A model generated the notes under the pieces. The model worked only from the letters and a program-made list of their open reading frames with translations, was not told where the DNA came from and made no database searches. This document shows, one piece after another, positions 1,318 to 19,224 of a stretch of 19,224 nucleotides of DNA. This stretch comes from Promethearchaeota archaeon (lineage in GTDB: Archaea > Asgardarchaeota > Lokiarchaeia > Sigyniarchaeales > SOKP01). Each line of letters begins with the position of its first letter. Positions within the stretch are counted from its first letter, which is position 1. The position numbers and the translations under genes were made by a program. The stretch covers positions 1-19,224 of the forward strand of contig JBHLNZ010000058.1 of assembly GCA_048941015.1 (NCBI GenBank), in the 5' to 3' direction.

Positions 1318-1383
1318 GCTGCAAATTAATATTTTAAATATAATAAGGTTTTATATATTTAATATTAGAAAAGATGATTTATT
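1318..1383. promoter_or_regulatory. Compact divergent promoter shared by sulfatase and MFS genes
   Basis: 66-bp AT-rich spacer with back-to-back TATA-like boxes forming the inverted repeat TTAAATATA(1334-1342)/TATATTTAA(1354-1362). Confidence 0.5.
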
Positions 1384-2652: not shown

Positions 2653-2794
2653 TACCTATAAAAATTTTATTTTTTTATTAGTTAGATATTAAGAAATTAA
2701 TTATTTTGGCAAAATCAAAATAGATTTATTATTATTTGAAAACACCTAGAAAAAGTTGTTTATAAGGCTTCTAGAATATGATATCGTGGTAATA

Positions 2795-2811
2795 TACTTA
2801 TTTTATAAGTA
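2795..2811 (+). promoter_or_regulatory. Palindrome overlapping a TATA-like box upstream of the RHH gene; candidate operator
   Basis: TACTTAT-TTT-ATAAGTA is a perfect 7-bp inverted repeat containing TTTTATAA. Confidence 0.4.
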
Positions 2812-2857
2812 GACTTGGCTCCTAAATATTAAAAAAAACGATTTAATCTCTCCCAAG

Positions 2858-3025
2858 GTGGTTTTAATAAAGCTCATAACATGTCATATTCCTGAAATGT
2901 ATCTCCAGGGGATCGAAGAACTCGTAAATATGAACTTATACCCTAATCGCTCTGAAGTAATAAGAGTTGCAATACGCGACTTGCTTAAGAGTGAATTAAG
3001 TTCAATAATTAGAAAAAAGGAATAA
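2858..3025 (+). CDS. Small ribbon-helix-helix (CopG/Arc/MetJ family) regulator, CdrS-like
   Basis: Missed by the ORF track. (M)VLIKLITCHIPEMYLQGIEELVNMNLYPNRSEVIRVAIRDLLKSELSSIIRKKE*: beta-strand LITCHIP plus the YPNRSEVIRVAIRDLL signature. Start is GTG 2858 or ATA 2867. Confidence 0.88.
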   Translation: MVLIKLITCHIPEMYLQGIEELVNMNLYPNRSEVIRVAIRDLLKSELSSIIRKKE

Positions 3026-3072
3026 TTTCATTTCCTTTTTATTCTTTTGTCTAGTAGTTCTTTAATTTTTTT
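3014..3072 (+). terminator. Putative terminator after the RHH gene
   Basis: AAAAAGGAA(3014-3022)/TTCCTTTTT(3032-3040) hairpin followed by several oligo-T tracts. Confidence 0.45.
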
Positions 3073-3189
3073 TGTGCAGGATCTTAGACTTTTTTCCTTT
3101 ATGCTTAAATAACAAAACTAATGAGTCTATTTAGTATAAATCATATTCACTAACATTGTTTATATAAATAAAAAAATAATACTCATTAT

Positions 3190-4164
3190 ATGCTCGAGAT
3201 ATTAATTTGGATATCTTTATTTTTAGGAGGATATCTTGTTATATATTTTGCTGCAGATATTTTTTTAGATAATTTAAAGAGTTTATGCTTAATTTACAAA
3301 TTATCTCCATTTATAATAGGCCTTCTAGTTCTTGGAATTGATCCAGAAGAATCCATAGCTTCGATTATCGCAGCTACAAATCAGCTTCCTTATATATCAA
3401 TCGGAAATGTAATAGGGAATTCAATTTTATCTTTATCTTTATGTTTTGCACTTCCAACTTTTTTTTATAAAATAAATTTGAAATCAATTTCTCATTTCTA
3501 CTTCATTATATTATACTCTTGTGCTATAATGATTTTATGTAGTTTCTTATTTAAATTAGGATTATTAATACTTGGTTCTGGAGCATTATTATTATACTTT
3601 ATTTACATTTTTAAGTCTTTAAAAGATATTTCTAAAAAAGGGAAATTAGAAACGATTAAAATGGAGGAAATAAGTGAACTAAATAAAGACGAGACAATCA
3701 TTGAGAGTTCAAAATACAAAAAAATCATTTTAATTATTTTTAGTTTCTCTTTTATAGTTATCGGAGGTGAATTATTGATTCTTTCAGCTGAAAATTTAAT
3801 TATTTTAACTGGTCTAAGCGAAGAATTTTTTGGATTCATAATAATTGCCTTTGTAACTAACGTTGAAGAATTAACTTTAGTTTTTAAATCAATAAAAAAA
3901 AGAAGTACAGAAATTGGTATAGGGGGAATGATTGGTAAGGTGATCTGGAACTTATCATTTACCTTTGGAGTTAGTGGAATGATTGCCTTAAATATAGAAT
4001 TTAATTATTTACTCTTTTTTAATTGGCTTATTTTAGTAATTATTATTGCTTTTTACCATTTTAGAGCAGGATATGAATCAACAACGATGATAGATCCTAT
4101 TATATTAAGCAGTTTTCTTATTATCTTCATTGTATTTAACTTAATGACCATTGTTCTGATTTGA
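3190..4164 (+). CDS. Ca2+/cation antiporter (CaCA, YrbG-like) with divergent alpha-repeats
   Basis: Two 5-TM repeats with a central hydrophilic loop; alpha-1 region GIDPEE...SIGNVIGNSI and alpha-2 region VTNVEE...GIGGMIGKVIWN. Confidence 0.82.
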   Translation: MLEILIWISLFLGGYLVIYFAADIFLDNLKSLCLIYKLSPFIIGLLVLGIDPEESIASIIAATNQLPYISIGNVIGNSILSLSLCFALPTFFYKINLKSISHFYFIILYSCAIMILCSFLFKLGLLILGSGALLLYFIYIFKSLKDISKKGKLETIKMEEISELNKDETIIESSKYKKIILIIFSFSFIVIGGELLILSAENLIILTGLSEEFFGFIIIAFVTNVEELTLVFKSIKKRSTEIGIGGMIGKVIWNLSFTFGVSGMIALNIEFNYLLFFNWLILVIIIAFYHFRAGYESTTMIDPIILSSFLIIFIVFNLMTIVLI

Positions 4165-4215
4165 ACTTCGCTGACTGAATTATTCAATTTTTTATTATTT
4201 GTATAATTATTTTAA

Positions 4216-5079
4216 ATGATGACTTTTACTCACTACGATTTTGAGTACTTTGATGTCCATACTCATTTTTTCCCCCCTCAAATATTTGAAGCAATTTGGG
4301 CTTTTTTTGAACAAAGAGACGAAAATGATCATGTTACAGGATGGCCTGTTAATTATAAGCTGACAACTAATGATTTAGTAAAAGTTTTAAAAAGAAACAA
4401 TGTAAAATATTTTGCAACTCATAATTATGCTCATAAAGTTGGTGTGGCTGAATATATAAACAATTGGACCAAAGAATTTGCATTATCGAATAAAAATATC
4501 ATTCCTTTTGGATGTGTGTGGCCAGAAGACAATAATAGATTAGAGTATACAAAAAAAATCTTTGATGAGTTTAATTTTTATGGTATAAAGATTCAACCGT
4601 TAGTACAAAAATTCTTTCTTGATGATGCTAGGATGTATGAAATCTACGATTTAATTTTTGATAAAGGAAAGTGGTTAATGGTTCATATAGGTACAGCACC
4701 ATATCGAAATCAATATGTTGGATACAAAAATTTCATAAATTTTCTAGAAAAATATCCGGATATGAATATTATTGTTGCGCATATGGGAGCCTTTGAATAT
4801 ACCAGATTTTTAAAGCTACTGGATAAGCATCCGAATCTTTATTTAGATACAGCAATGATTTATATCCCAAATAATATTTTTCCCGAAAGAGGCCCAAAAC
4901 GACCTAAACCTAAAGAGTTAATATCTTACCAAGATCGGATCCTTTTCGGTTCTGATTTTCCAAACATACCTTATGATTATGAAAATTCTACCAGGGGTTT
5001 GTTAGAATTTAATCTTCATAGAAGCTTTTATGAAAATATCTTTTTAAATAATGCTAAGCGAATTTTTAATGTGAAGTGA
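4216..5079 (+). CDS. Amidohydrolase_2 family metal-dependent TIM-barrel hydrolase
   Basis: DVHTH (HxH), GIKIQP, VHIG, AHMG, LYLDTA and ILFGSDFP motifs; C-terminal NAKRIF. Confidence 0.9.
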   Translation: MMTFTHYDFEYFDVHTHFFPPQIFEAIWAFFEQRDENDHVTGWPVNYKLTTNDLVKVLKRNNVKYFATHNYAHKVGVAEYINNWTKEFALSNKNIIPFGCVWPEDNNRLEYTKKIFDEFNFYGIKIQPLVQKFFLDDARMYEIYDLIFDKGKWLMVHIGTAPYRNQYVGYKNFINFLEKYPDMNIIVAHMGAFEYTRFLKLLDKHPNLYLDTAMIYIPNNIFPERGPKRPKPKELISYQDRILFGSDFPNIPYDYENSTRGLLEFNLHRSFYENIFLNNAKRIFNVK

Positions 5080-5105
5080 TATTTTCTAATTAAAGAGAAG
5101 TTTAA

Positions 5106-5939
5106 TTATATGATAACTAGACTCATTGACATAATAAACATCCCGGTCATAATCCCTAATATAGAATAATGCTCTTTAGCCAATGAACGAGCAACTGGTA
5201 ATAACTCATCTAATGAAATATATACCATTATACCCCCTACGACTCCTAACATGGCCCCCAACACAAAATCGTTGATGAATGGGAAAAGAATTAACCAAGT
5301 AATAATTGCCCCTAAAGGTTCGCTCATACCAGATATAAAAGACCATTTAAAAGCCTTTTTCTTGTTTCCAGTACAAGCATAAATTGGAACGGCTACAGCA
5401 ATTCCTTCAGGGATATTATGTAATGCAATAGCAACAGCCAGCAGAACCCCTAATTGAATTTCAGTAATCGCCCCAATAAAGGTTGCCATACCCTCAGGAA
5501 AGTTATGGATAAAAACACCAAAAAAGATGAAAATTGAGGTTTTCACTAAATTTACTTTCGGTTTTTCTCCTTCTTGTTTATATCTACGTCGATGACGATG
5601 TCCATAATGTAGATGTGGTTTGCATTCACCATTATTATTAGTAAGCATTTCTATAGAATCTTCAAATTCATATTCATGAGAGACTAAAACATCAATGCAA
5701 AACATAATCATCATTCCTAAAAAGAAAAAGATTAGACCCATAAATAACCCGTTTGTTACAATGCTCTCTTGTAATAATTCTACAAATGATATTAGTACCA
5801 TAACTCCCGCTGAAAATCCCATAATGAATGAAATGAATTTAGGACTCGGTTTGTGCATAAAGACTGCTATAAGACTCCCAATTGAGGTTGAAAGACCAGC
5901 GATTAAACTTAATAAAATTCCAAGTAAAAATGTCTCCAT
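5106..5939 (-). CDS. zupT: ZIP-family zinc/divalent metal transporter ZupT
   Basis: FSAGVM, HNFPEG and ALHNIPEG metal-site motifs, SGMSEPLG, SLDELLP, and a His-rich TM3-TM4 loop. Confidence 0.92.
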   Translation of the reverse strand: METFLLGILLSLIAGLSTSIGSLIAVFMHKPSPKFISFIMGFSAGVMVLISFVELLQESIVTNGLFMGLIFFFLGMMIMFCIDVLVSHEYEFEDSIEMLTNNNGECKPHLHYGHRHRRRYKQEGEKPKVNLVKTSIFIFFGVFIHNFPEGMATFIGAITEIQLGVLLAVAIALHNIPEGIAVAVPIYACTGNKKKAFKWSFISGMSEPLGAIITWLILFPFINDFVLGAMLGVVGGIMVYISLDELLPVARSLAKEHYSILGIMTGMFIMSMSLVII

Positions 5940-6073
5940 TTTTATTATCCGTCTTTTAAATTGTTTATTAGTATAATTTTATTATTATTATTGAATATTT
6001 ATAATAGAGGTTACAATATTAATTTAAACCTAATGAATAGCTATTTAATTTTTTTTAGTTAAAAATTTAAATA

Positions 6074-6091
6074 ATTTAGTTGTCCCTAAAT
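6074..6091. promoter_or_regulatory. Candidate DtxR/MntR-family metal-regulator box upstream of zupT
   Basis: ATTTAG-TTGTCC-CTAAAT inverted repeat. The minus strand reads TTAGG-GACA-ACTAA, close to TTAGG-N4-CCTAA-type boxes. Confidence 0.4.
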
Positions 6092-6323
6092 AGTTATATA
6101 GTAACTTCCTATTTAAACATTATCAAATTGAGAAAGCTTATAAAATAAACTAGATCATTTAAATTAAATAGGAGATAAAACTTATATATAATTAATTTTA
6201 ATTTAAAAAAAAAAAATCCAATTTACGTTTGAATAATCAACTTTTAATTTTTTTGTTGATACTATAAATAAGATAGATACTTTTCTTTATTAAAATTTTT
6301 TAACTGATAATATGTAATTACTA

Positions 6324-7349
6324 ATGAAACAAATAACATCCGCTGATAAACTTTTTTTTTTTGAAAGAAATTTCTTCACATTAGACGGCTTGTGGATGAT
6401 TGAGGCTGAGAAAGAATTAAATTGGCAAACAGCATTAAAAATCGATCTTGAGGTATGGAAAAACCTACTAAAAATTATAATACGAAGAATAAAAGGATAT
6501 TTACATTTAAAGGAAAACAGTTTAGCAAATTTAGTAAATATTCTTACTTTCCGGTGGTCGGTAGAAGGATGGAAATATAATGTTATAAATCTTAAGAGTA
6601 ATAAGGCAGAAATAAGAGTGAGTGCATGTCCTTATAAATTGGCTATGGATAGAAATCCTGAGCGGCATGATAAGATTGATTTAATTTGTAAAGATATGTG
6701 CATTCCATTTTATGATGCAATTGTGAAAGAATTTAATCAAGAGATTACGTTAAATAGAACCTGTTATATGGGTTTAGGAGATTCTTTCTGTGACTTTAAA
6801 TTTATGTCAAAGGAGTCAATATCAGAAGAGAATAATTTTAATTGGATTGAAGAAAGTCACAGAAAACTGACTATAGAGGATAAGTTATTTTATTTTGAAA
6901 AAAACTTTCGTACCCTTGATGGGTTATGGGTTATAGAGACTGAAAGTGAATTTAATTGGCAAACTGCTTTAAAGTTAGATATAATTGTTTGGCAGGAACT
7001 CTATAAAATAATTTTTCGAAGGGTTAAGAAGTATTTAAATTTAGAAGATAATTCGCTTTTAGATTTAGTTAAAATAATCTCATTTGTATGGAATTGTGAA
7101 GGGAATTTTCATGAAATTGTTAAAGTAAATGATAATGAGATAATTATAAATATTAATACTTGTCCATATATAGAAGCTATGCAACGTAATCCAAAAAGAC
7201 ATAATCGTATTGCTTCTATTTGTAAAGAAATGTGCATTCCTTATTTTGAACCAGTCGTAAAAGAATTTAATCCTAAAATTAAGATAGTTAGAAATAAATT
7301 TATTGGATTAGGGGATAATGTTTGTAATTTTCATTTTAAAATAGAATAA
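6324..7349 (+). CDS. Tandem-duplicated DUF6125-like (V4R/ATC-hydrolase-like) Cys-rich protein
   Basis: Two ~155-aa repeats, each DKLFxFExNFxTLDGLW...CPY...C-x3-C...GLGD-x2-C-x-F. The family name is from motif recall. Confidence 0.7.
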   Translation: MKQITSADKLFFFERNFFTLDGLWMIEAEKELNWQTALKIDLEVWKNLLKIIIRRIKGYLHLKENSLANLVNILTFRWSVEGWKYNVINLKSNKAEIRVSACPYKLAMDRNPERHDKIDLICKDMCIPFYDAIVKEFNQEITLNRTCYMGLGDSFCDFKFMSKESISEENNFNWIEESHRKLTIEDKLFYFEKNFRTLDGLWVIETESEFNWQTALKLDIIVWQELYKIIFRRVKKYLNLEDNSLLDLVKIISFVWNCEGNFHEIVKVNDNEIIININTCPYIEAMQRNPKRHNRIASICKEMCIPYFEPVVKEFNPKIKIVRNKFIGLGDNVCNFHFKIE

Positions 7350-9214
7350 ATTAGCTTAAAAAATGTGATATTTTTTTTAACTTCAGATATGATAATTTTT
7401 TGTTCTCCTTCTGAAATTTCATAAGCTTCAAAAATCCATTTATCTAATTCTCTTAAATTATGTAGATTTTGCTGGTTAATAATTCCTTCAGCTTGGAGAA
7501 GATTTTCAATAATATCATCCACTTTTTGGCTAATCTTAATCTTTAGTTCTTCATTTTCATTAATAATAGGGAGATGTCTGATCATATATTGATTTAAATT
7601 TATGGTTGTGTTATTCTGGTTATTTATTCCAAAAAGGCAATAAAATTGCATTAATGCAGAATTTAAAATGGCACATATATATTTCAATTCTAAATTATTA
7701 TCACAAGAAAGCGAATATACCGATGATGTAAAACATACATTATCTTCTGTAAAAGTAGCTTGAGGAACTATACTATTATGTTTAATCAGTAACTTTGGAC
7801 CAATGTAGTATTCATAATTTTCCCCCTTTAATACTTTTGGATCAATAAGTTCAATATTAAATGATTTATTTTTTTTAAAATAATAATAGTTAAAATCATC
7901 TTTAGCATACAAGAATAAACATGAGCCCAGTATATTATGTTTAATATGTTGCTTTATTTGCCTTAATCCTTTGCTTTCTTCGCCTCTAATCATTCTGGGA
8001 AAGCATTTTATATTTAAATAATTCAAATCTCCAATAAGTTCGATTTTATTTATGATATCATTTATTTCCAAGCTACTTTTAATTCTAATTCTATTTAGTG
8101 GAATTGTATTAGAATTACAATAAGGACATTCATTTTTAAATGTATAAGCAAAAACCTTTTTAGTTTTATCACAAAAAGGACAAGAAGAATTAATACAAAC
8201 TTTTAACTTGTCAAAATTTTGATTTTTAAATACAATAATTTCTTTATCAGGGTATTCATAGATTTTTAATTTATCTTCTTCTTTTATTCTTTTTTGATAA
8301 AAAATTATTTGAACTTCGTTTGTTGCCCTTTTAAATAAATTTGGGCCAACATCAATTATTTTTAAAAGATTAGCATTTGATAAAAAATTATTTCTAAAAT
8401 TTATATAACTTTGCCTTAAGAGAAAGCTTTTTGGTACTAAAAAACCAACAATTCCATTACACCAATTGATTGCTTTTAAGATATATGCGCAATAAATATC
8501 CTTATAAAAAATATTTTCGTTCTTTAAGAAAAATTTTTGATTTTTTGTTAAAATGTTTCCGTATGGAGGGTTTCCAACAACAATTTCAAACTTTTTTTTA
8601 ATTTTGGAAGTAAGACTATCTTCTTTTTTAATATTTGAACATAATATAGTAAAAATTTGATTTATATCGGATTTAGAGTTTAAATAATACCATCGACATA
8701 ATTTTAAAATTGTTAATTTAACTGCGGCATCATTAATATCGTATCCAAAAATATTTTCTATGAGTTTATGTCCTATTGTTGATAATTGACTTTTAAAATC
8801 TATTTTCTTAATTATATGATATAAAAGGTCAATTGCACTGACTAAAAAGACTCCTGAACCACAAGCAGGGTCGCAAATCTTAATTTTTAATAAAAGAGTA
8901 GCAATTCTATTTTGTAAATCTTCACTTAATTTAAAAAGATCTTTCACCTTATGGACAGTATTTAACTTAAAACGTTCCTTTAAATATAAAATAAATGTTT
9001 CAGAGCAAATAAAATTGGAAATAACACTTTTAGTAAAATATACTCCTTCTTTTTTTTTATTAGTATAATCTTCTAAGAATTCATTTTCAAGACTCTGAAT
9101 TGATTCTAATATCTTATGTAAAGTTTCTCTCTTATTTGATTTAAGAGCTTTCTGAAATTTTTCAAATAAATGATTTATTTTTGGAATATAATTTAGATTT
9201 TTCATACAATTCAT
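7331..9214 (-). CDS. Amino (N6-adenine) DNA methyltransferase, gamma class (TaqI/Eco57I-like), with C-terminal target recognition domain
   Basis: GVYFT (motif X), ICDPACGSGVFL (motif I), GYDIN, VVGNPPY (motif IV), and C-terminal LKYICAILNS...LPI typical of TaqI_C-like TRDs. Overlaps the convergent ORF by 19 bp. Confidence 0.9.
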   Translation of the reverse strand: MNCMKNLNYIPKINHLFEKFQKALKSNKRETLHKILESIQSLENEFLEDYTNKKKEGVYFTKSVISNFICSETFILYLKERFKLNTVHKVKDLFKLSEDLQNRIATLLLKIKICDPACGSGVFLVSAIDLLYHIIKKIDFKSQLSTIGHKLIENIFGYDINDAAVKLTILKLCRWYYLNSKSDINQIFTILCSNIKKEDSLTSKIKKKFEIVVGNPPYGNILTKNQKFFLKNENIFYKDIYCAYILKAINWCNGIVGFLVPKSFLLRQSYINFRNNFLSNANLLKIIDVGPNLFKRATNEVQIIFYQKRIKEEDKLKIYEYPDKEIIVFKNQNFDKLKVCINSSCPFCDKTKKVFAYTFKNECPYCNSNTIPLNRIRIKSSLEINDIINKIELIGDLNYLNIKCFPRMIRGEESKGLRQIKQHIKHNILGSCLFLYAKDDFNYYYFKKNKSFNIELIDPKVLKGENYEYYIGPKLLIKHNSIVPQATFTEDNVCFTSSVYSLSCDNNLELKYICAILNSALMQFYCLFGINNQNNTTINLNQYMIRHLPIINENEELKIKISQKVDDIIENLLQAEGIINQQNLHNLRELDKWIFEAYEISEGEQKIIISEVKKNITFFKLIYSILK

Positions 9215-9343
9215 TAACTTAGAACTTCTATTTCCAACGATCTTTAATAAATTTATTGAAATTTTTATATATATGAATCTTTCTTCTTATATAGTATATT
9301 CTTTATCTTTTTATAGTTAAAATTACTTTATATAATAGGGAAT

Positions 9344-9844
9344 ATGACGAATAAGGATGAAGAGAAAGATTATCACGGAGTAGCTCCAATCAAACCTATT
9401 ATTAAAAAAATGAAAAAACACTATGATAAAGACCCAAAAGATTGGAGAATCATCGGTTCTAAGGATAAAGAAGGAAATTATGATACTTTTATTACAAAAA
9501 AACCCGATGCTTATTGGTTAAAATCAAAAATGTTAAATCCTTATTCTTCATTGACTATGGGGTCAATAATTCGCAATATTGACAAAGAAATCGATGAAAA
9601 AATAGACAAAGGAAAAACTTTATCACCCGACGAGATGTATCGTCTTTTTGGAATGATTGTTCCAATTAAAAAGGATCAAAATATCATGGCTGCGGGTATT
9701 GAAAAATATTCACAACAACATGGAGATCATTTAAAAAAAGTAATTCATGATGAAAAAGATCCAAATTTAGGTTATCAGATGGCAAGAAGGATTGATGAAG
9801 AATTTACAAAAAAACATCCTCAAAGAAAGAACTTGTATATTTAA
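9344..9844 (+). CDS. Hypothetical protein (166 aa, Lys/Asp-rich, soluble)
   Basis: Long ORF with natural composition, upstream TATA (TTTATATA ~9326) and AGGGA before the ATG; no family recognised. Confidence 0.75.
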   Translation: MTNKDEEKDYHGVAPIKPIIKKMKKHYDKDPKDWRIIGSKDKEGNYDTFITKKPDAYWLKSKMLNPYSSLTMGSIIRNIDKEIDEKIDKGKTLSPDEMYRLFGMIVPIKKDQNIMAAGIEKYSQQHGDHLKKVIHDEKDPNLGYQMARRIDEEFTKKHPQRKNLYI

Positions 9845-9883
9845 AGATCGATAATTAAAAAAAGAAATTTAATACCATAGAAA

Positions 9884-10300
9884 TTATACCTTACTTTTTA
9901 TCATTTCTAGATCTTCTTTTCTTTTTATGATAGGAAAATTACTGGAATAATTACTTGTATTATTTATAAGTTCTGATATTAATGCATTTATCTTTTCTGG
10001 GCCTGATTTTCCTTCAATAGTTTTTGTAAACTCTTTTAATGAGAGAACATTTAAATCCTCAACATAAAAAGATATGCCTTTTTCTACCTCTTCAAGGAGA
10101 AATTGATAAGATAATTCTGCATCTCTTTCAGTTTTTAGCAATGGTTCATCAGGATCATCAAAAGTATAAGATATTTCAGTCCAACGATTTCCACTGGAAT
10201 CTACAGGCACCATACCAAAGATGTAATCAGAAGTATAGAGCCAAATAGGAGTGCCGTTATCATATGATGTGTCAACAATACTTTTAAATTCGTCGCTCAT
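9884..10300 (-). CDS. Hypothetical protein (138 aa, acidic)
   Basis: ORF with globular-looking sequence and an upstream TATA-like tract; no family recognised. Confidence 0.75.
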   Translation of the reverse strand: MSDEFKSIVDTSYDNGTPIWLYTSDYIFGMVPVDSSGNRWTEISYTFDDPDEPLLKTERDAELSYQFLLEEVEKGISFYVEDLNVLSLKEFTKTIEGKSGPEKINALISELINNTSNYSSNFPIIKRKEDLEMIKSKV

Positions 10301-10453
10301 ACTAAATCATTTTTTAGGTACTATTTTTATTTCTTTTTAGTATATATATTAAGAAAGTACTTTTACTATTATAATTTTAGAAAAATTATTTGAATCTTAT
10401 CTTTTCGATAAAGTTATAGAAGCTTTTTTAATAATAAGAAAATAATTATAAAT

Positions 10454-11215
10454 ATGCGCCAACTTGATTATGCAAACTTAAGCCTCAAGATTCAAAATTG
10501 GATAAAAAGTTATATCAGTTCTGCGAACGCTGATGGAGTAATCATTGGTTTAAGTGGAGGGATTGATAGTGCTGTCACTGCTTCTTTATGTATTAGAGCT
10601 CTTGGAAGTGAGTGTGTTATAGCTTTATGTTTACCTTGCGAATCAATTTTACAAGATATAGAAGATGCAAATTTGGTTGCTGATTCTTTAGGATTAGAAC
10701 TTGAGACAATAGACTTAAGTTCAGTTTATCATGAATTTTTAAGAGTGGCTGATACAATAACTCAACCTAACCAGATCGCAAAAGCTAATTTAAAACCAAG
10801 GTTAAGGATGATGACTTTATATTTTGTAGGTCAATCGAGAGGTAAATATTTGGTGGTTGGAACAGGTAATCGAGCTGAACTGGCAATCGGTTATTTTACA
10901 AAATATGGAGATGGTGGAGTGGATTTTGAACCATTGGGAGGAGTATATAAATGTGAAGTTAGAAAAATCGCCAAAGTTTTAAAGATTCCCGAAAAAATAA
11001 TTAATAAGCCCCCTTCTCCCGGATTATGGATTGGTCAAACAGATGAGGGAGAAATAGGATTAAAGTACGATATAATTGATGAAATTTTGTACAGAATTGA
11101 CTATAATCTGAGTCTCGAAGGCTTAGATCAAATAAGTGTACAAAAAGTTAAAATGTTGATGAAATCAGCGGAACATAAGATAAAATTGGCCCCAATATAT
11201 CAATTAAAGAAATAA
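10454..11215 (+). CDS. nadE: NH3-dependent NAD+ synthetase
   Basis: GLSGGIDS PP-loop, NLKPRLRM, GTGNRAE, GYFTKYGDG, KPPSPGLW and QTDE motifs; no glutaminase domain. Confidence 0.96.
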   Translation: MRQLDYANLSLKIQNWIKSYISSANADGVIIGLSGGIDSAVTASLCIRALGSECVIALCLPCESILQDIEDANLVADSLGLELETIDLSSVYHEFLRVADTITQPNQIAKANLKPRLRMMTLYFVGQSRGKYLVVGTGNRAELAIGYFTKYGDGGVDFEPLGGVYKCEVRKIAKVLKIPEKIINKPPSPGLWIGQTDEGEIGLKYDIIDEILYRIDYNLSLEGLDQISVQKVKMLMKSAEHKIKLAPIYQLKK

Positions 11216-11231
11216 GAGTACTCAAAAGCTG

Positions 11232-12617
11232 TTACATGCTTGAAATAATTCTTCTTATATTGTTAATTCTTGTAGTTATTTCATCTAATTTTTTCTTAAG
11301 AATTCCACTTTGCCTGTTGTATTCTGAATCTGCAATAGATCCCTTATTATAGCTTGCATCTATCTCTTTAAAGTTCCTCTCAATTGAATATCTTCTTCCT
11401 TCAAGAGCAATTAATTCTTGATATAATGAATCTTTATCATTAGGTAATTTGTCAGCATCATAGGTTTCAATATCGCTAATATTAGGTTCATTTGCAGAGT
11501 TAAAATCAACAAAAGGGCTTGCTTTAGTTTCATCTTGCATAATTCCTTTTTGTTTAATTTTAATTTCATCCTCTTCAATATTAGTTATTTCTTGTTTAAT
11601 TTCCGCTTTTGGTTTTGACTTATCTGATGATTTTTCTCCAACAGATGCGAAAACATTAAATAAATCGGTAGTACTTGATTGAATTGACTCCGATTCTATT
11701 TCTTCTATTCTAACGGAAGTAATTTTCGGTTTTTCCATTGATATTTTGCCTTTTTCTTTTCTTTCTGGCACTTCTTTAGGTTCGAATACACTAAGCGGTT
11801 TTTCTGGAATAACTGATGTTACTTTTCGCTTTCCTGCTGTTAATGGTCGATCTTTTGATTCTTCAATAACCATAGGAGTAATTTTAGGTACCTTTTTCGG
11901 AATAGGAGTTAGCTTTTGTTCTTCCATTTTTTTTGTTTCAGGTTTAGATATTTGAGGAATAGGAGCTAATTTCTTTTTTACTGGTTCTTGAAACTCTGTA
12001 GGCTTTTTTTCTATTGATTTTGATTTGCTATCTATTTTGGGGCCAATTATTGGCTTTTTAATAACAGGGATTTTGATCTTGGGAGGAGGTAATCTGCTTT
12101 CTTTTTTAAGAATAATTTTCTCAACTTTTTTCTTTTGACTCATCTTCGCAAGAGTCTCATCTTTTTTCTCTAATTCTTTTTTAAGTTCTTCAATCTTTCC
12201 TCTTAATCCATTAATTTCTCCTTTAAACTGTTCTGATACTTTATCAACAATTTCGGTTAAATCTATTTCAGTTTTTTCAATCACCTTTTTAGATGCCACA
12301 TCTTCTATTTCAGCTTCAGGTTCTTGAACTTCTTTTTTATGTGTGGGAATATTTAGCATACTTCCGATTAACTTAGGGATTGAAGTCTCTGAAAACCATA
12401 GATCAAGGGGATCCCAATCTTCTAATTCTTTTAAAATATGTTCAATTTCATACCTATACTCTGGTTGTGAATTATTATTTTTTAAATCACGAAAAAGATC
12501 AATTAGTGTTTCTCTTGCTTCAATTTCATCATCGGGAGACGGTTCTCCCTCCATTAAAAACAAATAAAGGTCCTTTACTTCTTTAAGCATCGATTCAAAC
12601 TTTTTTTCTTCGCTCAT
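11232..12617 (-). CDS. Hypothetical protein: N-terminal helical domain, coiled coil, Pro/Lys/Glu-rich linker and C-terminal steadiness-box/SHOCT-like helical hairpin
   Basis: Heptad region at about aa 120-165, low-complexity aa 170-390, and C-terminal 65 aa SLYQELIALE...NKGSIADSEY. Confidence 0.75.
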   Translation of the reverse strand: MSEEKKFESMLKEVKDLYLFLMEGEPSPDDEIEARETLIDLFRDLKNNNSQPEYRYEIEHILKELEDWDPLDLWFSETSIPKLIGSMLNIPTHKKEVQEPEAEIEDVASKKVIEKTEIDLTEIVDKVSEQFKGEINGLRGKIEELKKELEKKDETLAKMSQKKKVEKIILKKESRLPPPKIKIPVIKKPIIGPKIDSKSKSIEKKPTEFQEPVKKKLAPIPQISKPETKKMEEQKLTPIPKKVPKITPMVIEESKDRPLTAGKRKVTSVIPEKPLSVFEPKEVPERKEKGKISMEKPKITSVRIEEIESESIQSSTTDLFNVFASVGEKSSDKSKPKAEIKQEITNIEEDEIKIKQKGIMQDETKASPFVDFNSANEPNISDIETYDADKLPNDKDSLYQELIALEGRRYSIERNFKEIDASYNKGSIADSEYNRQSGILKKKLDEITTRINNIRRIISSM

Positions 12618-12772
12618 ACAGATTTCTATGTTGATTTATTGTTAATTCTTAGCTATTAATTTCTCTTTAAGTATTAAATAACTTTTCATTAATTTATTTT
12701 TTTGTAATATTTTAAGACTATAGTTTTAAAAGATATAAATAGCGCTTTTTTTAACATTCATGTCAAAATTTC

Positions 12773-12864
12773 AATCTCAAGATATATGGCATTTTTAAGA
12801 ATTGTTATATCTTAAGATTCTCAAAGGATTTTTTCAAGAAGGTTAGGAAACTAGGAAATCCTTT
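12773..12864. repeat. Two adjacent inverted repeats in the divergent intergenic region
   Basis: AATCTCAAGATATA(12773-12786)/TATATCTTAAGATT(12806-12819), 13/14 match; AAAGGATTT(12823-12831)/AAATCCTTT(12856-12864), abutting TTTATATA. Confidence 0.55.
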
Positions 12865-12951
12865 ATATACTAATATGACAATAATAGGATTATAATATTT
12901 TTTTCTTTAGTTGGGATATAAGATAGCAATAATGAATAATGAGTTTTAATA

Positions 12952-14187
12952 GTGATTTTATTTATGCAAACAAGAAATAAGATTGGTTTGGTTGTTTTAA
13001 TTAACTTTATTCTCCCTTTACATGTTTTATTATATTTTGGAGCCGTCAATATGTATTTCGATTACGCAATGAATTTATGCTACCTATCTTTTTTAGTACT
13101 AGGAAGTAAAGATTTAGAGACGGATAAAAGGGAATTCAAACGATTAACCCTTTTGAAGATTTTTCCCGTGATACTCTACTTTTATTATATTATAACTCAA
13201 GTAGGATATCCTTTTATTAATATGATATTGGGGTATAGCCTAGATTTTTTCTTTCTCAATTTCATATTATCTAACGCCCCAGATTTATATTGGGTAATAC
13301 GAATTATATCCTATACTGCTACATTTCTTTTAATTTTTGGCTTAATGTTGTTTGGATTTAATAACAGAAAATACTATGGAAATTACATGATCGCATTCGC
13401 AGTTTTGTATTTAGTAGACAGGGTATTTAGTTTAATTAACGCTATTACTTTATCATATAACGCTACATTTTATCTCCTCTTTCTTTATGCCACTTTTATT
13501 TTAGTGTCAATTTCAGCTAGTTATTTGGTATTTTTTGGACAGAGAATAAGAAATATTTATTTCACTTTAAGTGGAATTATGTTCTTTGGAGCTATTTTTA
13601 TTAGGTGGATATTTACTTTTATAATTTTTGTCGTTAGCCAAATAGAAATTTATTCTGTCATAGCGCTTATACTTTCTTTAATTGGAGTGGTGATTTCAGG
13701 GCGTTTTATAGAATTAGGCGGTACTTTCAGGCGAGGGATCCGTATCTTTATCAGTCATGCTGTTGCGGACTATAATAGATACAGGATTAATGACATTGCA
13801 CAATTCTTAGAAAACCAAAAAGGAATACGCTATGTATTTTACTGTGAAAATGATTTAACAGGAAATATTGATGCTTGGATGCAAAAAACGGTACCACGTT
13901 GTCATTTGCTAATATTCATTTCGACTGAAAAATCATTAAATTCGGCTGACTGCACTACTGAATTAGGCCTTGCTCGAGATAGAGGGCTGACAATCATTCC
14001 CATATTGGGAGTTGGGCTAAGTTGGGATGATTTGAAAAAGCTAGATGTTCATAGAGAAATTGGCGCGAGTTTCGATCCAATGGAATTTGAAGATTTTTGC
14101 AATAAATTGTACCAACAAATCCAAATATATAAGAAATCATTCAATCAAATATCTGACAACGACCAACACCAGAATAAGGAGAGTTAA
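12952..14187 (+). CDS. Multipass membrane protein (about 8 TM) with C-terminal TIR domain
   Basis: Hydrophobic aa 10-252, then TIR motifs RIFISHA...LLIFISTEKSLNSADCTTELGLA...IIPI. Start may be ATG 12964. Confidence 0.85.
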   Translation: MILFMQTRNKIGLVVLINFILPLHVLLYFGAVNMYFDYAMNLCYLSFLVLGSKDLETDKREFKRLTLLKIFPVILYFYYIITQVGYPFINMILGYSLDFFFLNFILSNAPDLYWVIRIISYTATFLLIFGLMLFGFNNRKYYGNYMIAFAVLYLVDRVFSLINAITLSYNATFYLLFLYATFILVSISASYLVFFGQRIRNIYFTLSGIMFFGAIFIRWIFTFIIFVVSQIEIYSVIALILSLIGVVISGRFIELGGTFRRGIRIFISHAVADYNRYRINDIAQFLENQKGIRYVFYCENDLTGNIDAWMQKTVPRCHLLIFISTEKSLNSADCTTELGLARDRGLTIIPILGVGLSWDDLKKLDVHREIGASFDPMEFEDFCNKLYQQIQIYKKSFNQISDNDQHQNKES

Positions 14188-14273
14188 TTTATTATTCTTT
14201 ATGTTATAAATGAATTGATCTTTTTCGTCAAATGAGCATGTCAAAAATGTAAGAATCTTTTAAATCTGGGGGT

Positions 14274-14305
14274 AAAAGTTTAAATATTAGATAAAGATCT
14301 TATCT
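14274..14305 (+). promoter_or_regulatory. BRE-TATA promoter followed by a palindromic operator-like site
   Basis: AAAAG + TTTAAATA (14279-14286), then AGATAA-N5-TTATCT (14289-14305). Predicted TSS is about 14308-14312. Confidence 0.6.
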
Positions 14306-14306
14306 T

Positions 14307-14555
14307 ATAACAATGATCTCGAATAATACTGCTACAAGAACATTGGGAAGGGTATTAATATCCCTAAGTATTATTATCGTAGTAGTATTAATTATCTAAG
14401 CAAAACAAATCCAACTTCTCTTTTTCTTATAAGCTTTTCATGGATTTGTTTGCTTCGAGCATGTTATTTATTTGAAAAAGGGATTGGTGGGTTCGTTTCG
14501 CTTTTAAGAAGTATACAATAAAAAGTATTAGAATAAACAAAGAAAAGGAAGTAAA
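14307..14555 (+). promoter_or_regulatory. Structured 5' leader RNA with mutually exclusive helices (attenuator-like)
   Basis: Helices 14307-14323/14454-14467, 14324-14335/14379-14390 and 14398-14413/14441-14455; alternatives 14398-14426/14474-14503 and 14414-14427/14541-14552. Confidence 0.65.
14313..14399 (+). CDS. 28-aa Ile/Leu/Val-rich leader peptide (uORF) MISNNTATRTLGRVLISLSIIIVVVLII
   Basis: ATG about 27 nt after the TATA box (near-leaderless). 13 of the last 15 codons are Ile/Leu/Val; TAA at 14397-14399. Confidence 0.62.
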   Translation: MISNNTATRTLGRVLISLSIIIVVVLII

Positions 14556-16007
14556 ATGAAATATAAAAATAGTGAAACGAAACATCAGGTAATTGAATAC
14601 TTACAATCATATTTTCTTGGTATTGGTTTTAAAGAACTAAACGACCTTGTAATAAAAAAAAACAATTGTGTTTTTTGTGGTACTTGTACCTCGTTATGTC
14701 CTCGTATTGGGATGAATGGAAAAGAACCCACACTATTAGAATATGATCCGGAATGTTCCACCTGTTTTAGGTATTGTCCAAGAACATACTTTCCTGAAGA
14801 AATGTTTAAAAAAGAATTATTTCATGATGGGGCAAACAATAGTTATGCATTAGGATATTACCAAAAATCTCTTGCTGCTAAAAGCAATGATGATAATATA
14901 ATGAGACTTGCTCAAAATGGAGGCGTTGTTTCTACATTACTCATACATGCTTTGGATACTGGTTTAATAGATGGAGTTATTCTTACCGATAGAGATGAAA
15001 ATTGGTATCCAAAACCTATAATAGCACGAACTTCCAAAGAAATCTTGTCATGTACAGGTTCTAAATATACAATTGCCCCAACCCTAAATACTTATAAGGA
15101 CGCAATAAATGAATTAAAACTAGAAAAATTAGCATTTGTTGGGATGCCCTGTCAAATCAAAGCTGTAAGGAAATTACAATTGTTTTCTCCCCTCTCAGAA
15201 GAATATGGAAAATTTTCATTAATTATAGGACTTTATTGTTTCTCAAATTATTCGTATGATTTGATGAAGTTACTTGTTCAAGGAGAACTTGGAATTCCAC
15301 TCAGCAATGTTAAGAAAATCGATATTTCACAGGGTAGATTTTATGTATATACATATGATGGATTAATTAAAGAAGTTCCAATAAAGGAAACTAAGGAATA
15401 TAGTTGGTCAAGTTGCCAATATTGTAAAGATTATTGTGCTGAATTTGCAGATATTTCTATTGGTAGTGTGGGAGCTCCCGAGAATGATTGGAATAGCGTA
15501 TTATTACGGACGGATAGAGGTGTAAAATTATTTAATGATGCAGTAGAAGCTAAGAAAATAGTATCTTCCAATAGTATTGATCTATTTAAAATCGAGAAAG
15601 AAGCAATAAGAAAGAAAACAAGAGTAACTCAAATAGATAAACAAATATTAAGCGCTATGCAGTTCTTAAATATTTCTGATTTCGAAATAAAGACTTATAC
15701 AACTCTAATGTCATTAGGAAATGCAAGTGAAACGATATTAAGTAAAATTATGAACACAGAAGAAATTTTTGTTAGAAACGCACTTCAAAAGCTGAAGAGA
15801 CGAGAATGGGTTATAGCTGCTAATGGATCATACAGTACTGTTAATCCCAGTATAGTTATTGAAAATGAAATATATAAGTTAAAGAACAATTTCTTTAAAA
15901 ATATTGAGAAGCTAAAAACTGAAGTTCTTACTAATTTAGAAGCTCTATATGTACAAAATAATTTTAATAATGTACGATTTGATGAAAATCTGGATTTAAT
16001 CAAATGA
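14556..16007 (+). CDS. FrhB/FdhB-family F420-binding Fe-S flavoprotein with N-terminal ferredoxin and C-terminal TrmB-like winged HTH
   Basis: CVFCGTCTSLCP and CSTCFRYCP ferredoxin motifs; AQNGGVVS, GSKY, VGMPCQ, IGLYC, CQYCKD and ADISIGSVG FrhB motifs. From about aa 368, LNISDFEIKTYTTLMSLG...VRNALQKLKRREWV resembles TrmB HTH. Confidence 0.88.
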   Translation: MKYKNSETKHQVIEYLQSYFLGIGFKELNDLVIKKNNCVFCGTCTSLCPRIGMNGKEPTLLEYDPECSTCFRYCPRTYFPEEMFKKELFHDGANNSYALGYYQKSLAAKSNDDNIMRLAQNGGVVSTLLIHALDTGLIDGVILTDRDENWYPKPIIARTSKEILSCTGSKYTIAPTLNTYKDAINELKLEKLAFVGMPCQIKAVRKLQLFSPLSEEYGKFSLIIGLYCFSNYSYDLMKLLVQGELGIPLSNVKKIDISQGRFYVYTYDGLIKEVPIKETKEYSWSSCQYCKDYCAEFADISIGSVGAPENDWNSVLLRTDRGVKLFNDAVEAKKIVSSNSIDLFKIEKEAIRKKTRVTQIDKQILSAMQFLNISDFEIKTYTTLMSLGNASETILSKIMNTEEIFVRNALQKLKRREWVIAANGSYSTVNPSIVIENEIYKLKNNFFKNIEKLKTEVLTNLEALYVQNNFNNVRFDENLDLIK

Positions 16008-16085
16008 TAATCTTAAAAACGATTATTTAGCACTCTTTCAAGAAGTTGTGAATGACAAAAATCAACCCCAGGGAAAAATGGTTAA

Positions 16086-16727
16086 CTAAAATTGTTGACT
16101 TGGTTTTCTTAACATACACCAAAGGGGAACATCGGTTTCAGGGATTATTGTATATTCAAGTATTTCGAATCCGTATTTCTGGTAAATTGACACACTCTTT
16201 TCTGTATTAGTTTCCACATAAATCGGTAATCCGTCGCTTTCAACTGTTTTTATCATAGTACGTATTAATAAGCCCCCATATCCTTTTCCTTGTTCTTCTG
16301 GTTTAACAGCAATATTTTGAAAATACCAATGGTCATAAGGCGCAAGCTCTTTATGTTTTTCTTCCTCATACTTAAAAACGGTCATAGTTCTTTTCAATGC
16401 TTTTAATTTTAAACCTACTTTACGCATTGCATAAAAACCTCCATATCTCATCATAGTCCAAGTAGATGGATAAGTTTTTTTAGGAGGAAGCCATATTGTA
16501 ATTCCTTCTAAGTTCTTAGAAGTTGCATAAGCTAATCCATGTTTTATTCCGTAATTATAGATCATATAAAATCCATATTGGAGCTTTTCCTTTCTTTCTT
16601 TCTCATCGGGATATGTAAAGATCGTGATGGGATCGTTTTGAAAAGCATTACCTGCCACTATACACGCCTCTTTAACATCATTCGGCGTTAATTTATAAAG
16701 ATTGTCCAAATTAATATTTGTATTCAT
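16086..16727 (-). CDS. GNAT family N-acetyltransferase
   Basis: HWYFQNIAVKPEEQGKGYG acetyl-CoA motif A, YVET, and YQKYGFE motif B. Start is more likely ATG 16727 than 16772. Confidence 0.9.
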   Translation of the reverse strand: MNTNINLDNLYKLTPNDVKEACIVAGNAFQNDPITIFTYPDEKERKEKLQYGFYMIYNYGIKHGLAYATSKNLEGITIWLPPKKTYPSTWTMMRYGGFYAMRKVGLKLKALKRTMTVFKYEEEKHKELAPYDHWYFQNIAVKPEEQGKGYGGLLIRTMIKTVESDGLPIYVETNTEKSVSIYQKYGFEILEYTIIPETDVPLWCMLRKPSQQF

Positions 16728-16836
16728 ATTAGAATTTAGAAAAAAGTCGATTATAAAAAATCTGTAGTCCAATAATTGTTGGATCTACATAGTGAAAAAT
16801 GGGGATTTTAGAGCTTTATCTTAATATTTTCATTTC

Positions 16837-17679
16837 TTAAGGAATCTCAACACCTGGTACTTCAACTTTTAAAAATTCAATTCTTCCACTTGATCTTTTA
16901 CCCTCTAAATATTGAGTGGTGCAAAGAAAAAGAGTTCTTCCATCATCTCCACCCAGAGCGCAAGCATAAACATTTGTACCTTTTACTTTAATAGTAGAAG
17001 TGATTTCACCTCCTTCCAAAACACGTAAGACTTCTGCTTTGGATGGATTTGCGACCCAAATGGCACCTTCTTCATCAAGACATATACCATCTGGGGAAAA
17101 GTCTTTAAATTTCGCCCAAATTCTTCGATTTATTAGATTTCCTGAATTTTCAATATCAAAAGCAGTCAATTTACTTCCAAAAGTTTCTGCTACAATAAAA
17201 GTTTTGCAATCGGGAGTCACAATACATCCATTGGGAAAAATAAGATTTTCTGCAACTATTCTTGCATCCCCCTCTTTTGTTACCAGAATGATGCATGTGG
17301 GTTCAGCTGGGGAATCAAGGGATTTAGTACCCCAATTTCCTATGTAAGTTCGTCCATGAATATCGGTTACGGAATCATTGCAGTTATATTCTGTAAAGTT
17401 GCTTAAATCCGCATGAATCTTCAATCCTTTTGGATCTAAAAGCATTAGGTAACGTCTTTGCATTGAAACTATAAGCATCCTACCATCATTCAAAAAACCC
17501 AATCCCGAAGGAGAATCCTGCAGTTCTACGATAATTTCTGATTTGCCTTTTTCATCAACGACGATGACTTTTTTTCCAGTGAAATCTGAAAAGAACAACT
17601 TTCCGTTTCGCCAACGAGGGGCCTCTGGAAATCCAAGACCAGATAATAATATTTTGGTTTCCATTTTCATATTTATCAT
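16837..17679 (-). CDS. SMP-30/gluconolactonase/LRE family beta-propeller
   Basis: FPEAPRW, NCND, FPNG and PDGICLDEEGAIWVA motifs. Start could be one of three Met codons. Confidence 0.92.
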   Translation of the reverse strand: MINMKMETKILLSGLGFPEAPRWRNGKLFFSDFTGKKVIVVDEKGKSEIIVELQDSPSGLGFLNDGRMLIVSMQRRYLMLLDPKGLKIHADLSNFTEYNCNDSVTDIHGRTYIGNWGTKSLDSPAEPTCIILVTKEGDARIVAENLIFPNGCIVTPDCKTFIVAETFGSKLTAFDIENSGNLINRRIWAKFKDFSPDGICLDEEGAIWVANPSKAEVLRVLEGGEITSTIKVKGTNVYACALGGDDGRTLFLCTTQYLEGKRSSGRIEFLKVEVPGVEIP

Positions 17680-17855
17680 TTTGATTTTTATTTTAATAAA
17701 GTTACCTTTCTATTTATTCTCCAAAACGATAATCTGCACACTGGAAGGTAATAATAATATTAATAAATTGTAAATAAATTTTTATATGAGATTTTCAATA
17801 CTATTAACTAATCCAGAAGTATATTAATAAATCGATACTATAAAAGGGAATAAGG

Positions 17856-18311
17856 ATGATTTGTTCTAAATGTGGAGTTAAATTAAGTGATTCCGATCAT
17901 AGATATTGTCAAAATTGCGGAGCTGAAATTATAACTCATGCTAAAACAACTAATCTTACTGATAAGCCTCAAATTGAGCCTGAGAAACCAAAGGAAGTTG
18001 AAGCTAATAATTTATGGATTGGATTTATCTTGATTGCTATTGGAATCCTTATCATCGGAATGGGTATAGTTGGATATTACATAGAAAAAGTAAATTGTTA
18101 TAACCCAGCGGTGGGTTGTGGTATCTTGACGGGTGGGGGGGGCATGGGTCTTTTTGGAGTTAACTTTTTAGGCTTGTTTGTTATTATAGGAGGTATCCTA
18201 TTTCCATATAGGAAACATAGAATAGCCAAAAGGATTTTGCCTCTTTTGTTTATTATTGTTCCAACACTAGCTTTTTTTCTGTCATTTATAATTGTTAGCT
18301 TTAATTTCTAA
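17856..18311 (+). CDS. Zinc-ribbon domain membrane protein
   Basis: N-terminal CSKCG-x9-CQNCG, charged linker and three hydrophobic segments; purine-rich RBS-like AAGGGAATAAGG. Confidence 0.85.
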   Translation: MICSKCGVKLSDSDHRYCQNCGAEIITHAKTTNLTDKPQIEPEKPKEVEANNLWIGFILIAIGILIIGMGIVGYYIEKVNCYNPAVGCGILTGGGGMGLFGVNFLGLFVIIGGILFPYRKHRIAKRILPLLFIIVPTLAFFLSFIIVSFNF

Positions 18312-18366
18312 TAATTAAAAACTTCGATTTTATAAAAATTCTTCATTAAGTTAGAATTATGAGCTA

Positions 18367-18786
18367 TTATTCAATTTTCCTTGAAATTCTTGATAAGGGA
18401 TGCCCTTTTGCTTTTATCTCTAATTCATTAAACCAACCAAAAGGAGGTCTAAGAACAGTGTATCGCTCTTTCAAGAGCACTTCTAAATCTTTTAAAATCC
18501 TTAAACTGAATTCTGGACTACTTAAATCACCAAAAAGATGAGCAAATGATAAGAGTACAATATTTGAAACTTTAATCTGCTTTATAATTTTTTCAATTTC
18601 TATTACTGCTTTCTCCAAAAGTTTCGAATTAGTTTCGTCTTTCTTCTCTGTACTAATAAAAAGCAAGATGAGATTGTCAAGAGCATTTTCTTTGTTGATA
18701 TCTGTTAATTCCTCGAAAACTTTTGAACGACTTCTCTTAGTGGTTTTATATTTAAAATAATCACAATGAAAAGATAAAAATCTCAT
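18367..18786 (-). CDS. Free-standing archaeal threonyl-tRNA synthetase editing domain (ThrRS-ed, DTD-like fold)
   Basis: MRFLSFHCDYFKY, FAHL, RPPFGW and KGHPLSRISR match the archaeal ThrRS editing motifs (YAHL, RAPFG, KGHPL). Confidence 0.9.
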   Translation of the reverse strand: MRFLSFHCDYFKYKTTKRSRSKVFEELTDINKENALDNLILLFISTEKKDETNSKLLEKAVIEIEKIIKQIKVSNIVLLSFAHLFGDLSSPEFSLRILKDLEVLLKERYTVLRPPFGWFNELEIKAKGHPLSRISRKIE

Positions 18787-18940
18787 AGTTAGGACTTTAT
18801 ATGATCTTATTTAATAATATTTTAATTATTAAAACTCTAATATTCTAAGAAAATCTAGTTTCTTCATATAGAAAGCAACTTTTATTGAAATTGATTTTTT
18901 AAAATTTAACAATTAGCTTATTATACGCTAGATGGAATTT

Positions 18941-19224
18941 TTAAGTCAAAATAAAACTCAAAGAGGGCCAACTATTATCTCCATCTGTTAAATTCATATC
19001 AATTCTGGGTTGCGTTCTATTAAAAATGTCTGTTGCTCTCACGTATATAGTGTTGATTGCTGTTTTCATTTTAAAAAAAGTGAGTTTTATTTCCCAAAAA
19101 ACCCAAACGTTGTCAAAATCAACGCTTTTAATTATATTTGCTTGATGCCAATCCAGTCCATCATTAATGGTATATTCTACTTTTGATATTCTAGTTCCCC
19201 CATATGCTGCACCCCCAATTAAAA
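18941..19224 (-). CDS. C-terminus of a sulfite-oxidase-family molybdoenzyme (Mo-co dimerisation Ig-like domain); 5' part outside window
   Basis: Not in the ORF track. Manual translation: LIGGAAYGGTRISKVEYTINDGLDWHQA...VWVFWEI...IYVRATDIFNRTQP...WPSLSFILT*; TAA at 18943-18941. Confidence 0.75.
   Translation of the reverse strand, partial: LIGGAAYGGTRISKVEYTINDGLDWHQANIIKSVDFDNVWVFWEIKLTFFKMKTAINTIYVRATDIFNRTQPRIDMNLTDGDNSWPSLSFILT

Follow-up and report, generated by a model that had tools for sequence, protein, structure and literature searches.

Transcription attenuators that act through a leader peptide are familiar from the enterobacteria, where they include ilvL of the ilvGMEDA operon, ivbL, leuL and pheM, the last of which lies before pheST. 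Leader-peptide attenuation requires coupled transcription and translation. The T-box riboswitches of Firmicutes bind tRNA directly via one specifier codon, and translation is not needed.

In mycobacteria, leaderless short ORFs with poly-Cys runs act as attenuators, and loci that share one amino-acid signal have been called a 'ribulon' (Canestrari et al., 10.1101/834739); stalled ribosomes there block a duplex that hides the ribosome-binding site (RBS) of the next gene (10.1101/834739). In Actinobacteria, including Streptomyces, classical attenuators were predicted before leuS and trpS and a LEU element before leuA (Seliverstov et al. 2005, PMC1262725). Codon mutations in the ilvB and leuA leaders of S. 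coelicolor did not behave as classical attenuation, a result that counsels caution for the leader described here as well (PMC1262725). In the literature that we searched, we found leader-peptide attenuation described in bacteria and no description of it in archaea.

Here, we analyze a leader ORF within a 19,224-nucleotide stretch of DNA (the window) from a Promethearchaeota archaeon (assembly GCA_048941015.1, contig JBHLNZ010000058.1, positions 1–19,224). Judging from comparative sequence analysis, we put at about 60% the probability that this ORF acts as the sensor of an attenuator-type switch, read by the ribosome, that governs the FrhB-TrmB gene after it.

A hydrophobic-tailed leader ORF precedes the FrhB-TrmB gene

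The leader ORF occupies positions 14313–14399 of the + strand, where a frame of 28 codons plus TAA runs from an ATG and translates into a 28-residue peptide. In this copy, a basic N-terminal half is followed by a 15-residue uncharged hydrophobic tail that ends in SIIIVVVLII, and the ORF as a whole contains seven Ile, four Val and four Leu codons. A sequence-only reading of this DNA had quoted the same 28-residue ORF, with Ile, Leu or Val at 13 of the 15 terminal positions, the codon series ATT-ATT-ATC-GTA-GTA-GTA and three Thr residues in the peptide, all of which translation of the + strand bears out. It had also described the hydrophobic run as free of Phe, Tyr, Met, Ala and Gly. That description is accurate for this copy but does not extend to the orthologous peptides, which carry Ala at position 24 and an occasional Phe, Pro, Cys, Gly or Met.

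The gene downstream, at 14556–16007 on the + strand, starts 156 nt past the leader stop on the same strand. It encodes a 483-residue fusion of a ferredoxin domain, FrhB_N/FrhB_C and a TrmB-type HTH, as assigned with Pfam and NCBIfam. Directly 5′ of the leader promoter lies a gene for a 411-residue membrane protein with a TIR domain (12952–14187, + strand), in which the C-terminal TIR_2 match covers residues 265–353. Further upstream, the window holds a 627-residue restriction-modification methylase of the Eco57I/N6_Mtase/TaqI_C type (7331–9214, − strand) in a region of 23–25% local G+C, below the rest of the window, as well as ORFs of 461, 166 and 138 residues without a Pfam match (11232–12617, − strand; 9344–9844, + strand; 9884–10300, − strand).

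A search of 40 related genomes with the FrhB-TrmB protein returned five close loci (65–73% identity) and a more distant clade (57–59%). The 28-codon ORF is kept, at identical length and at positions −243 to −157, before five of the seven related FrhB-TrmB loci, and it is absent from two loci of 57–59% identity. The sequence-only reading had looked to the leaders of orthologous FrhB-TrmB genes for such upstream ORFs, and all of the close orthologues carry one. In addition, the five close loci share a promoter-like block, a segment after the stop codon and a further block about 80 nt beyond it. The orthologous peptides are conserved at 77% mean column identity.

The leader module forms a family with distinct codon-run classes

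The leader is one copy of a module composed of a BRE/TATA promoter, an ORF of 20–32 codons, a hairpin based on the stop codon (P1) and a second pairing with a distal block. A profile search with the peptide recovered copies in a second genus, together with a subfamily that has the same N terminus but a Leu-rich tail and stands about 150 nt ahead of genes annotated by NCBIfam as archaeal leucine–tRNA ligase. A covariance model of the post-ORF part of the switch (R1), with which we scanned genomes, gave about 125 matches in 98 of the 135 genomes of one Asgard family and none in 126 genomes that represent 28 further families of this phylum. The genome studied here has a single R1 match, at 14394–14512 on the + strand (117.8 bits, E = 1.4e-24), and a regular-expression search of this genome for the N-terminal motif returned this copy only.

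From these matches we fetched and tabulated 121 distinct modules. An ORF starting with ATG ends at a common position of the model in 111 of them, and most of the other ten, when inspected manually, also have one, which begins with GTG or has its stop shifted. Two individual leaders depart from the usual form: in a Leu-type leader of genome G010 (L139), the usual stop is lost and the frame enters the 5′ arm of P1 for three codons before it meets a TAA, and in an Ile-type leader before FrhB-TrmB in genome G059 (L123), the start is apparently GTG rather than ATG. Distances from the stop codon to the downstream start are 123–160 nt in nearly all modules that precede leucyl-tRNA synthetase (LeuRS) or FrhB-TrmB genes.

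The make-up of the codon run follows the downstream gene. In the LeuRS class (73 modules), the last ten residues are 60% Leu, 13% Val, 8% Ala and less than 1% Ile, with Leu dominant in 70/70 distinct peptides. In the FrhB-TrmB class, to which this window belongs (18 modules), they are 47% Ile, 20% Val and 17% Leu, with Ile dominant in 18/18. The sequence-only reading had proposed a sensor of Ile/Leu/Val-tRNA charging; the tails of this class are dominated by Ile and are not generically I/L/V. The third class, in front of small proteins of 45–80 residues without a Pfam match (28 modules), is mixed, with 36% Val and 29% Leu. The proteins of this class (behind L047, L143, L161, L165, L150, L186 and others) are acidic and have a strong GGAGG RBS; those after Val-type modules include some with a C-terminal ...IAW and others in which LDYYKDW occurs, and a Pfam search with nine of the small downstream proteins found no match. 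An Ile-type module occurs together with a Leu-type module in ten genomes, so the difference between the tails does not stem from genome composition.

Leu is preserved at the same tail positions by codons of both the TTR and the CTN boxes. The Ile class uses ATT and ATC, and ATA accounts for 3/79 of its Ile codons as opposed to 34% genome-wide.

Paralogous modules with a run of Leu codons stand before LeuRS genes, the arrangement that a gauge of aminoacyl-tRNA predicts. Most of these genes encode the archaeal-type enzyme (NF008957, TIGR00395) and, in one other genus, the bacterial-type enzyme (TIGR00396, 549 bits over the first 406 residues). In several relatives, the leader-controlled archaeal-type LeuRS is a second copy beside a bacterial-type LeuRS. 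The sole detectable LeuRS of the genome studied here is of the bacterial type and lies outside the window, on contig C64 at about 122515–122760; the 140-nt region upstream of it contains no leader module, and no archaeal-type LeuRS behind a Leu-type leader was found in this 95%-complete assembly.

Taken alone, the agreement between LeuRS and Leu has about a 1-in-3 chance of arising, and membership of a class is mostly inherited. In a rough tree of the post-ORF RNA, built from a short alignment without branch supports, the class label changes 7 times, compared with 41 times for shuffled labels, and the leaders of the bacterial-type LeuRS genes nest among the Val-type leaders of their own genus. 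A cognate amino acid is known for one of the three target classes (LeuRS) and none for FrhB-TrmB.

Promoter geometry and signs that the frame is read

Alignment of 110 modules at their ATG codons reveals information peaks at −39 to −35, corresponding to an A-rich BRE, and at −34 to −27, corresponding to a TATA box. In the window, these elements are the BRE at 14273–14278 and the TATA box TTTAAATA at 14279–14286, 27–34 nt 5′ of the ATG; the promoter element is also kept in the orthologue alignment. Positions −7 to −1 are conserved at 62–90% across the 110 modules, with TATAAYA as the family consensus right before the ATG. The corresponding TTATAACA abuts the ATG in this copy (14305–14312, + strand) and is probably the initiator region. 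The distance from the BRE/TATA elements together with the initiator-like motif predicts that transcription begins at about −4 to −1. A near-leaderless mRNA is therefore a reasonable inference from TATA geometry.

Several features of the family indicate that the frame is maintained. The stop codon falls at one fixed position in 110 modules, where all three kinds occur (TAA 49, TAG 9, TGA 52), and across the same modules the leader frame is open, with the other two frames averaging 4.4 and 1.8 stops. These observations bear on another alternative, that the ORF is an open frame arisen by chance in AT-rich DNA between genes. At a G+C content of about 30% for window and genome alike, chance frames are to be reckoned with, and 3 of the 12,725 ATG-initiated ORFs of 20–45 codons in this genome reach the same 13/15 terminal I/L/V; composition by itself is thus not decisive, and it is conservation that sets the ORF beyond chance. 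Across 98 genomes, more than 110 modules keep the start, the length, the frame and the stop position, which excludes a chance frame.

The peptide itself could instead be the product that matters. The ORF would then encode a trans-acting peptide, such as a type I toxin, a peptide that sits in the membrane or is tail-anchored to it, or a leader-peptide regulator of the peTrpL kind known from Sinorhizobium, and its position before FrhB-TrmB would be synteny only. Leader peptides with functions in trans exist (PMC7298713), and the basic N-terminal half and uncharged tail of this copy as well as the conservation of the orthologous peptides would suit such a role. However, the longest stretch without charged or strongly polar residues has a median of 8 residues in the LeuRS class, 9 in the small-protein class and 15 in the FrhB-TrmB class, too short for a membrane helix. 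Charged residues flank the hydrophobic run, and in most copies acidic ones come directly before it. Apart from the kind of codon in the tail, the sequence varies freely across the family, a same-strand gene always lies about 150 nt 3′ of the module and no antisense partner is apparent. We consider a trans-acting peptide very improbable, and the small membrane peptide or type I toxin that the sequence-only reading had offered as its alternative is, for the family, rejected on the length of these uncharged stretches.

The leader RNA contains conserved and possibly competing pairings

The 204-nt leader of this copy folds at −48.1 kcal/mol, with a z score of −3.0 relative to shuffled sequences. 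RNAalifold applied to the whole 238-column alignment returned no structure, and the helices described here came from sub-alignments.

Two helices lie within the ORF. In the first (P0), the strand TAATACTGCT at 14324–14333 (+ strand, codons 4–7) pairs with the tail codons, AGTAGTATTA, at 14381–14390 (+ strand), as RNAalifold shows. The second (P0a) is a central hairpin at 14348–14365 (+ strand) in which AAGGGTA pairs with TATCCCT. It shows GC/AU exchanges at pairs 46–59 and 47–58, and six of its seven pairs form in this copy. Together, P0 and P0a are paired in 84.6% of alignment cells, compared with 29–57% in slid controls. The duplex between the N-terminal region and its own tail has a mean energy of −14.0 kcal/mol, as opposed to −9.1 kcal/mol with tails of other classes and −8.5 kcal/mol with codon-shuffled tails. 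The pairing of codons 4–8 with the tail codons means that the conservation of the peptide lies partly at the RNA level.

A third helix (P1) begins in the stop codon. Its 5′ arm extends from the last two bases of the stop to position 14413 (14398–14413, + strand), and its 3′ arm lies at 14441–14455 (+ strand). P1 is paired at 90.8% in 26 sequences and at 90.5% in 100, compared with at most 51% in slid controls; the 100-row alignment was fitted to P1 and thereby favors it, and independent MAFFT alignments agree. Compensatory changes occur in 14 of the 15 pairs, including the second base of the stop codon (TAA/TGA) with its partner.

The same strand has a second partner. A conserved distal block at 14474–14501 (+ strand) can pair with 14400–14425 as an alternative to P1 or as a pseudoknot, and over 24 pairs this distal pairing is 85.3% paired in 26 sequences and 72.6% paired in 100. 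Its core, GAT...CTTTTT with GAAAAG...ATC, is 74–92% paired and covaries in 100 sequences. Part of this pairing is the helix between a T5 tract in the P1 loop (14421–14425, + strand) and GAAAAA at 14474–14479, equivalent to A5 alignment columns 38–43 with 108–114, which is 91.8% paired and has UA/UG/CG exchanges. Just 5′ of the T tract, a 5-bp hairpin involving the stop region and columns 19–23 can be discerned by eye in some groups; this copy does not form it.

The alternative pairings meet at a place relevant to a ribosome: P1 starts in the stop codon, its strand also pairs distally and both pairings covary. In this copy, the more stable of the two is the long-range fold, calculated at −30.1 kcal/mol as opposed to −17.3 kcal/mol for P1, and P1 would be the first to form during transcription. 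The core of the distal pairing also fits a pseudoknot on P1, so that in parts of the family both folds might coexist. Because the distal block covaries with the strand that follows the stop, the transcript from the leader promoter must reach about 75–100 nt downstream, at least sometimes. A second promoter, which we also considered, might lie in the AT-rich spacer that separates P1 from this block.

The extent of this structure makes an RNA-only sensor the serious rival to ribosome reading. A structured cis-regulatory RNA might bind a protein, a small ligand or a tRNA, the last reading the codon run directly as in a T-box, with the ORF merely tolerated or needed just for a single opening of the structure. 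Almost the whole leader is taken up by conserved helices, four in number (P0, P0a, P1 and the distal pairing or pseudoknot), and the pairing of the tail accounts for the N-terminal conservation of the peptide. The distal block contains UGGU, presumably comparable to the tRNA-end-binding bulge of T-boxes, a likeness that we treat as a lead only. In four variants (L177, L178, L181 and L183), the tail nucleotides GTAGTATTATT are kept in a different frame, so that the peptide ends in IIKRE, which is not hydrophobic, rather than in Val and Leu. RNA conservation here outlasts the peptide tail, a finding that favors an RNA sensor and counts against an attenuator. A precedent is the Streptomyces LEU element, which combines an upstream ORF of Leu codons with a pseudoknot and shows non-attenuator behavior (PMC1262725).

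Other observations are at odds with a sensor made of RNA only. The start codon is at the predicted transcript start, the frame stays open in more than 110 diverged AT-rich copies and three kinds of stop codon share a single fixed position within P1. Moreover, the modules carry runs of three to eight codons for the same amino acid rather than a single specifier; Leu persists through changes of codon box; and the T-box and leader families of Rfam give no match. On balance, we regard an RNA-only sensor as unlikely, though with a clearly greater claim than a trans-acting peptide.

At gathering score, Rfam returned no match for the leader, and the best matches at E values up to 10 are unrelated families scoring 11–19 bits, the T-box family not being among them. 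Without a match to an Rfam leader, the likeness to ilvL to which the sequence-only reading had drawn attention is one of composition and function and does not amount to homology.

A proposed ribosome-read switch and its output step

In the attenuator-type switch that we favor, transcription would start at or just 5′ of the AUG, so that a ribosome would load on the 5′ end of the RNA. This ribosome would translate the 28 codons, with Ile (ATT/ATC) predominating in the final ten alongside Val (GTA) and Leu (TTA). The tail codons would be held in P0 with codons 4–8, the stop codon would supply the first base pairs of P1 and the 5′ strand and loop of P1 could pair alternatively with the conserved block about 75 nt further on. 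If charged tRNA-Ile were scarce, the ribosome would be held in the Ile run and the strand after the stop would be left free or stay partly covered for longer, whereas a ribosome that reached the stop would cover the 5′ arm of P1. The position of the ribosome would thereby pick the fold of the RNA that follows and set how strongly the gene 156 nt further on is expressed. What is inferred in this scheme is translation, ribosome stalling, the selection of a fold and the output step, be it transcript end, processing or translation, as well as the sign of the response.

The leader-peptide reading draws comparative support from the upstream ORFs of the orthologues, the Leu runs before LeuRS genes and the stop codon within a covarying P1, and it has bacterial precedents in the mycobacterial poly-Cys ORFs and the predicted leuS attenuators of Streptomyces. 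Against it stands the constraint that P0 places on much of the tail as RNA, since U/A-rich stems yield Ile, Leu and Val codons unaided. Nor did our searches for an output by terminator or RBS masking find one.

No bacterial-type terminator, in the form of a hairpin with a U-run, was found in the leader. After the long-range fold, this copy has TTTT at 14502–14505, which is not conserved across the family, and no U-run lies consistently 3′ of either fold. We also considered the T5 tract as a simple oligo-T terminator and rejected it: the tract is one strand of a highly paired helix in which CG replacements occur, and helix pairing explains its conservation, so that termination is unneeded, though possible. 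Masking of the RBS by the leader was likewise rejected, as minimum free energy folds of 83 leaders pair the RBS mostly with local sequence.

Taken as a family, the modules make it slightly better than an even bet that this group of Asgard archaea runs a ribosome-directed regulon. A single leaderless scaffold, joining a leader ORF to an RNA switch, would have been copied and re-specified to runs of Ile, Leu or Val codons, and would control FrhB-TrmB, LeuRS genes and small acidic proteins through an output other than a hairpin plus U-run. Such a regulon would be the first archaeal case of leader-peptide attenuation that senses amino acids.

Comparison with known systems

A conserved archaeal version with three specificities, if true, would show that the closest prokaryotic relatives of eukaryotes gauge tRNA charging by means of the ribosome. 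The roughly 125 natural variants would provide concrete RNA on which to consider the interplay of archaeal RNA polymerase, ribosome and RNA folding. The Ile-type copy, if so read, would tie FrhB-TrmB, an otherwise unexplained regulator with redox domains, to isoleucine status, which suggests what this regulator may control.

Like the T-box riboswitches, which report tRNA charging, the Asgard module is a cis-acting RNA before aminoacyl-tRNA synthetase genes, with amino-acid-specific variants of a single scaffold. It differs from them in that its conserved ORF can be translated and carries a codon run, and in giving no Rfam match.

The actinobacterial elements resemble it in placing a leader ORF with Leu codons before a leucyl-tRNA synthetase gene, and the LEU element further combines a Leu-run upstream ORF with a pseudoknot. 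The actinobacterial leuS leaders, however, are bacterial and have hairpin and poly-U terminators, which the Asgard module lacks.

With the mycobacterial short ORFs, the module shares a leaderless first cistron (here predicted from the TATA box and initiator), a codon run proposed to be read by the ribosome and several loci per amino-acid signal. Unlike in mycobacteria, no RBS duplex was found, the downstream start is about 150 nt away and the two systems differ in domain of life and in RNA family.

The likeness to the enterobacterial attenuators consists of a short ORF upstream of a gene, a codon run for one or a few amino acids and folds among which a ribosome could select; pheM–pheST applies a similar logic to an aminoacyl-tRNA synthetase gene. 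The Asgard leader departs from these in its archaeal host, its predicted leaderless mRNA and the absence of a terminator formed by a GC hairpin and U-run. Its architecture is also its own: the codon run closes the ORF and is paired with the ORF start, and the stop codon lies inside the first helix. Finally, its proposed target in this window is no biosynthetic operon but an FrhB-TrmB fusion that resembles a regulator.
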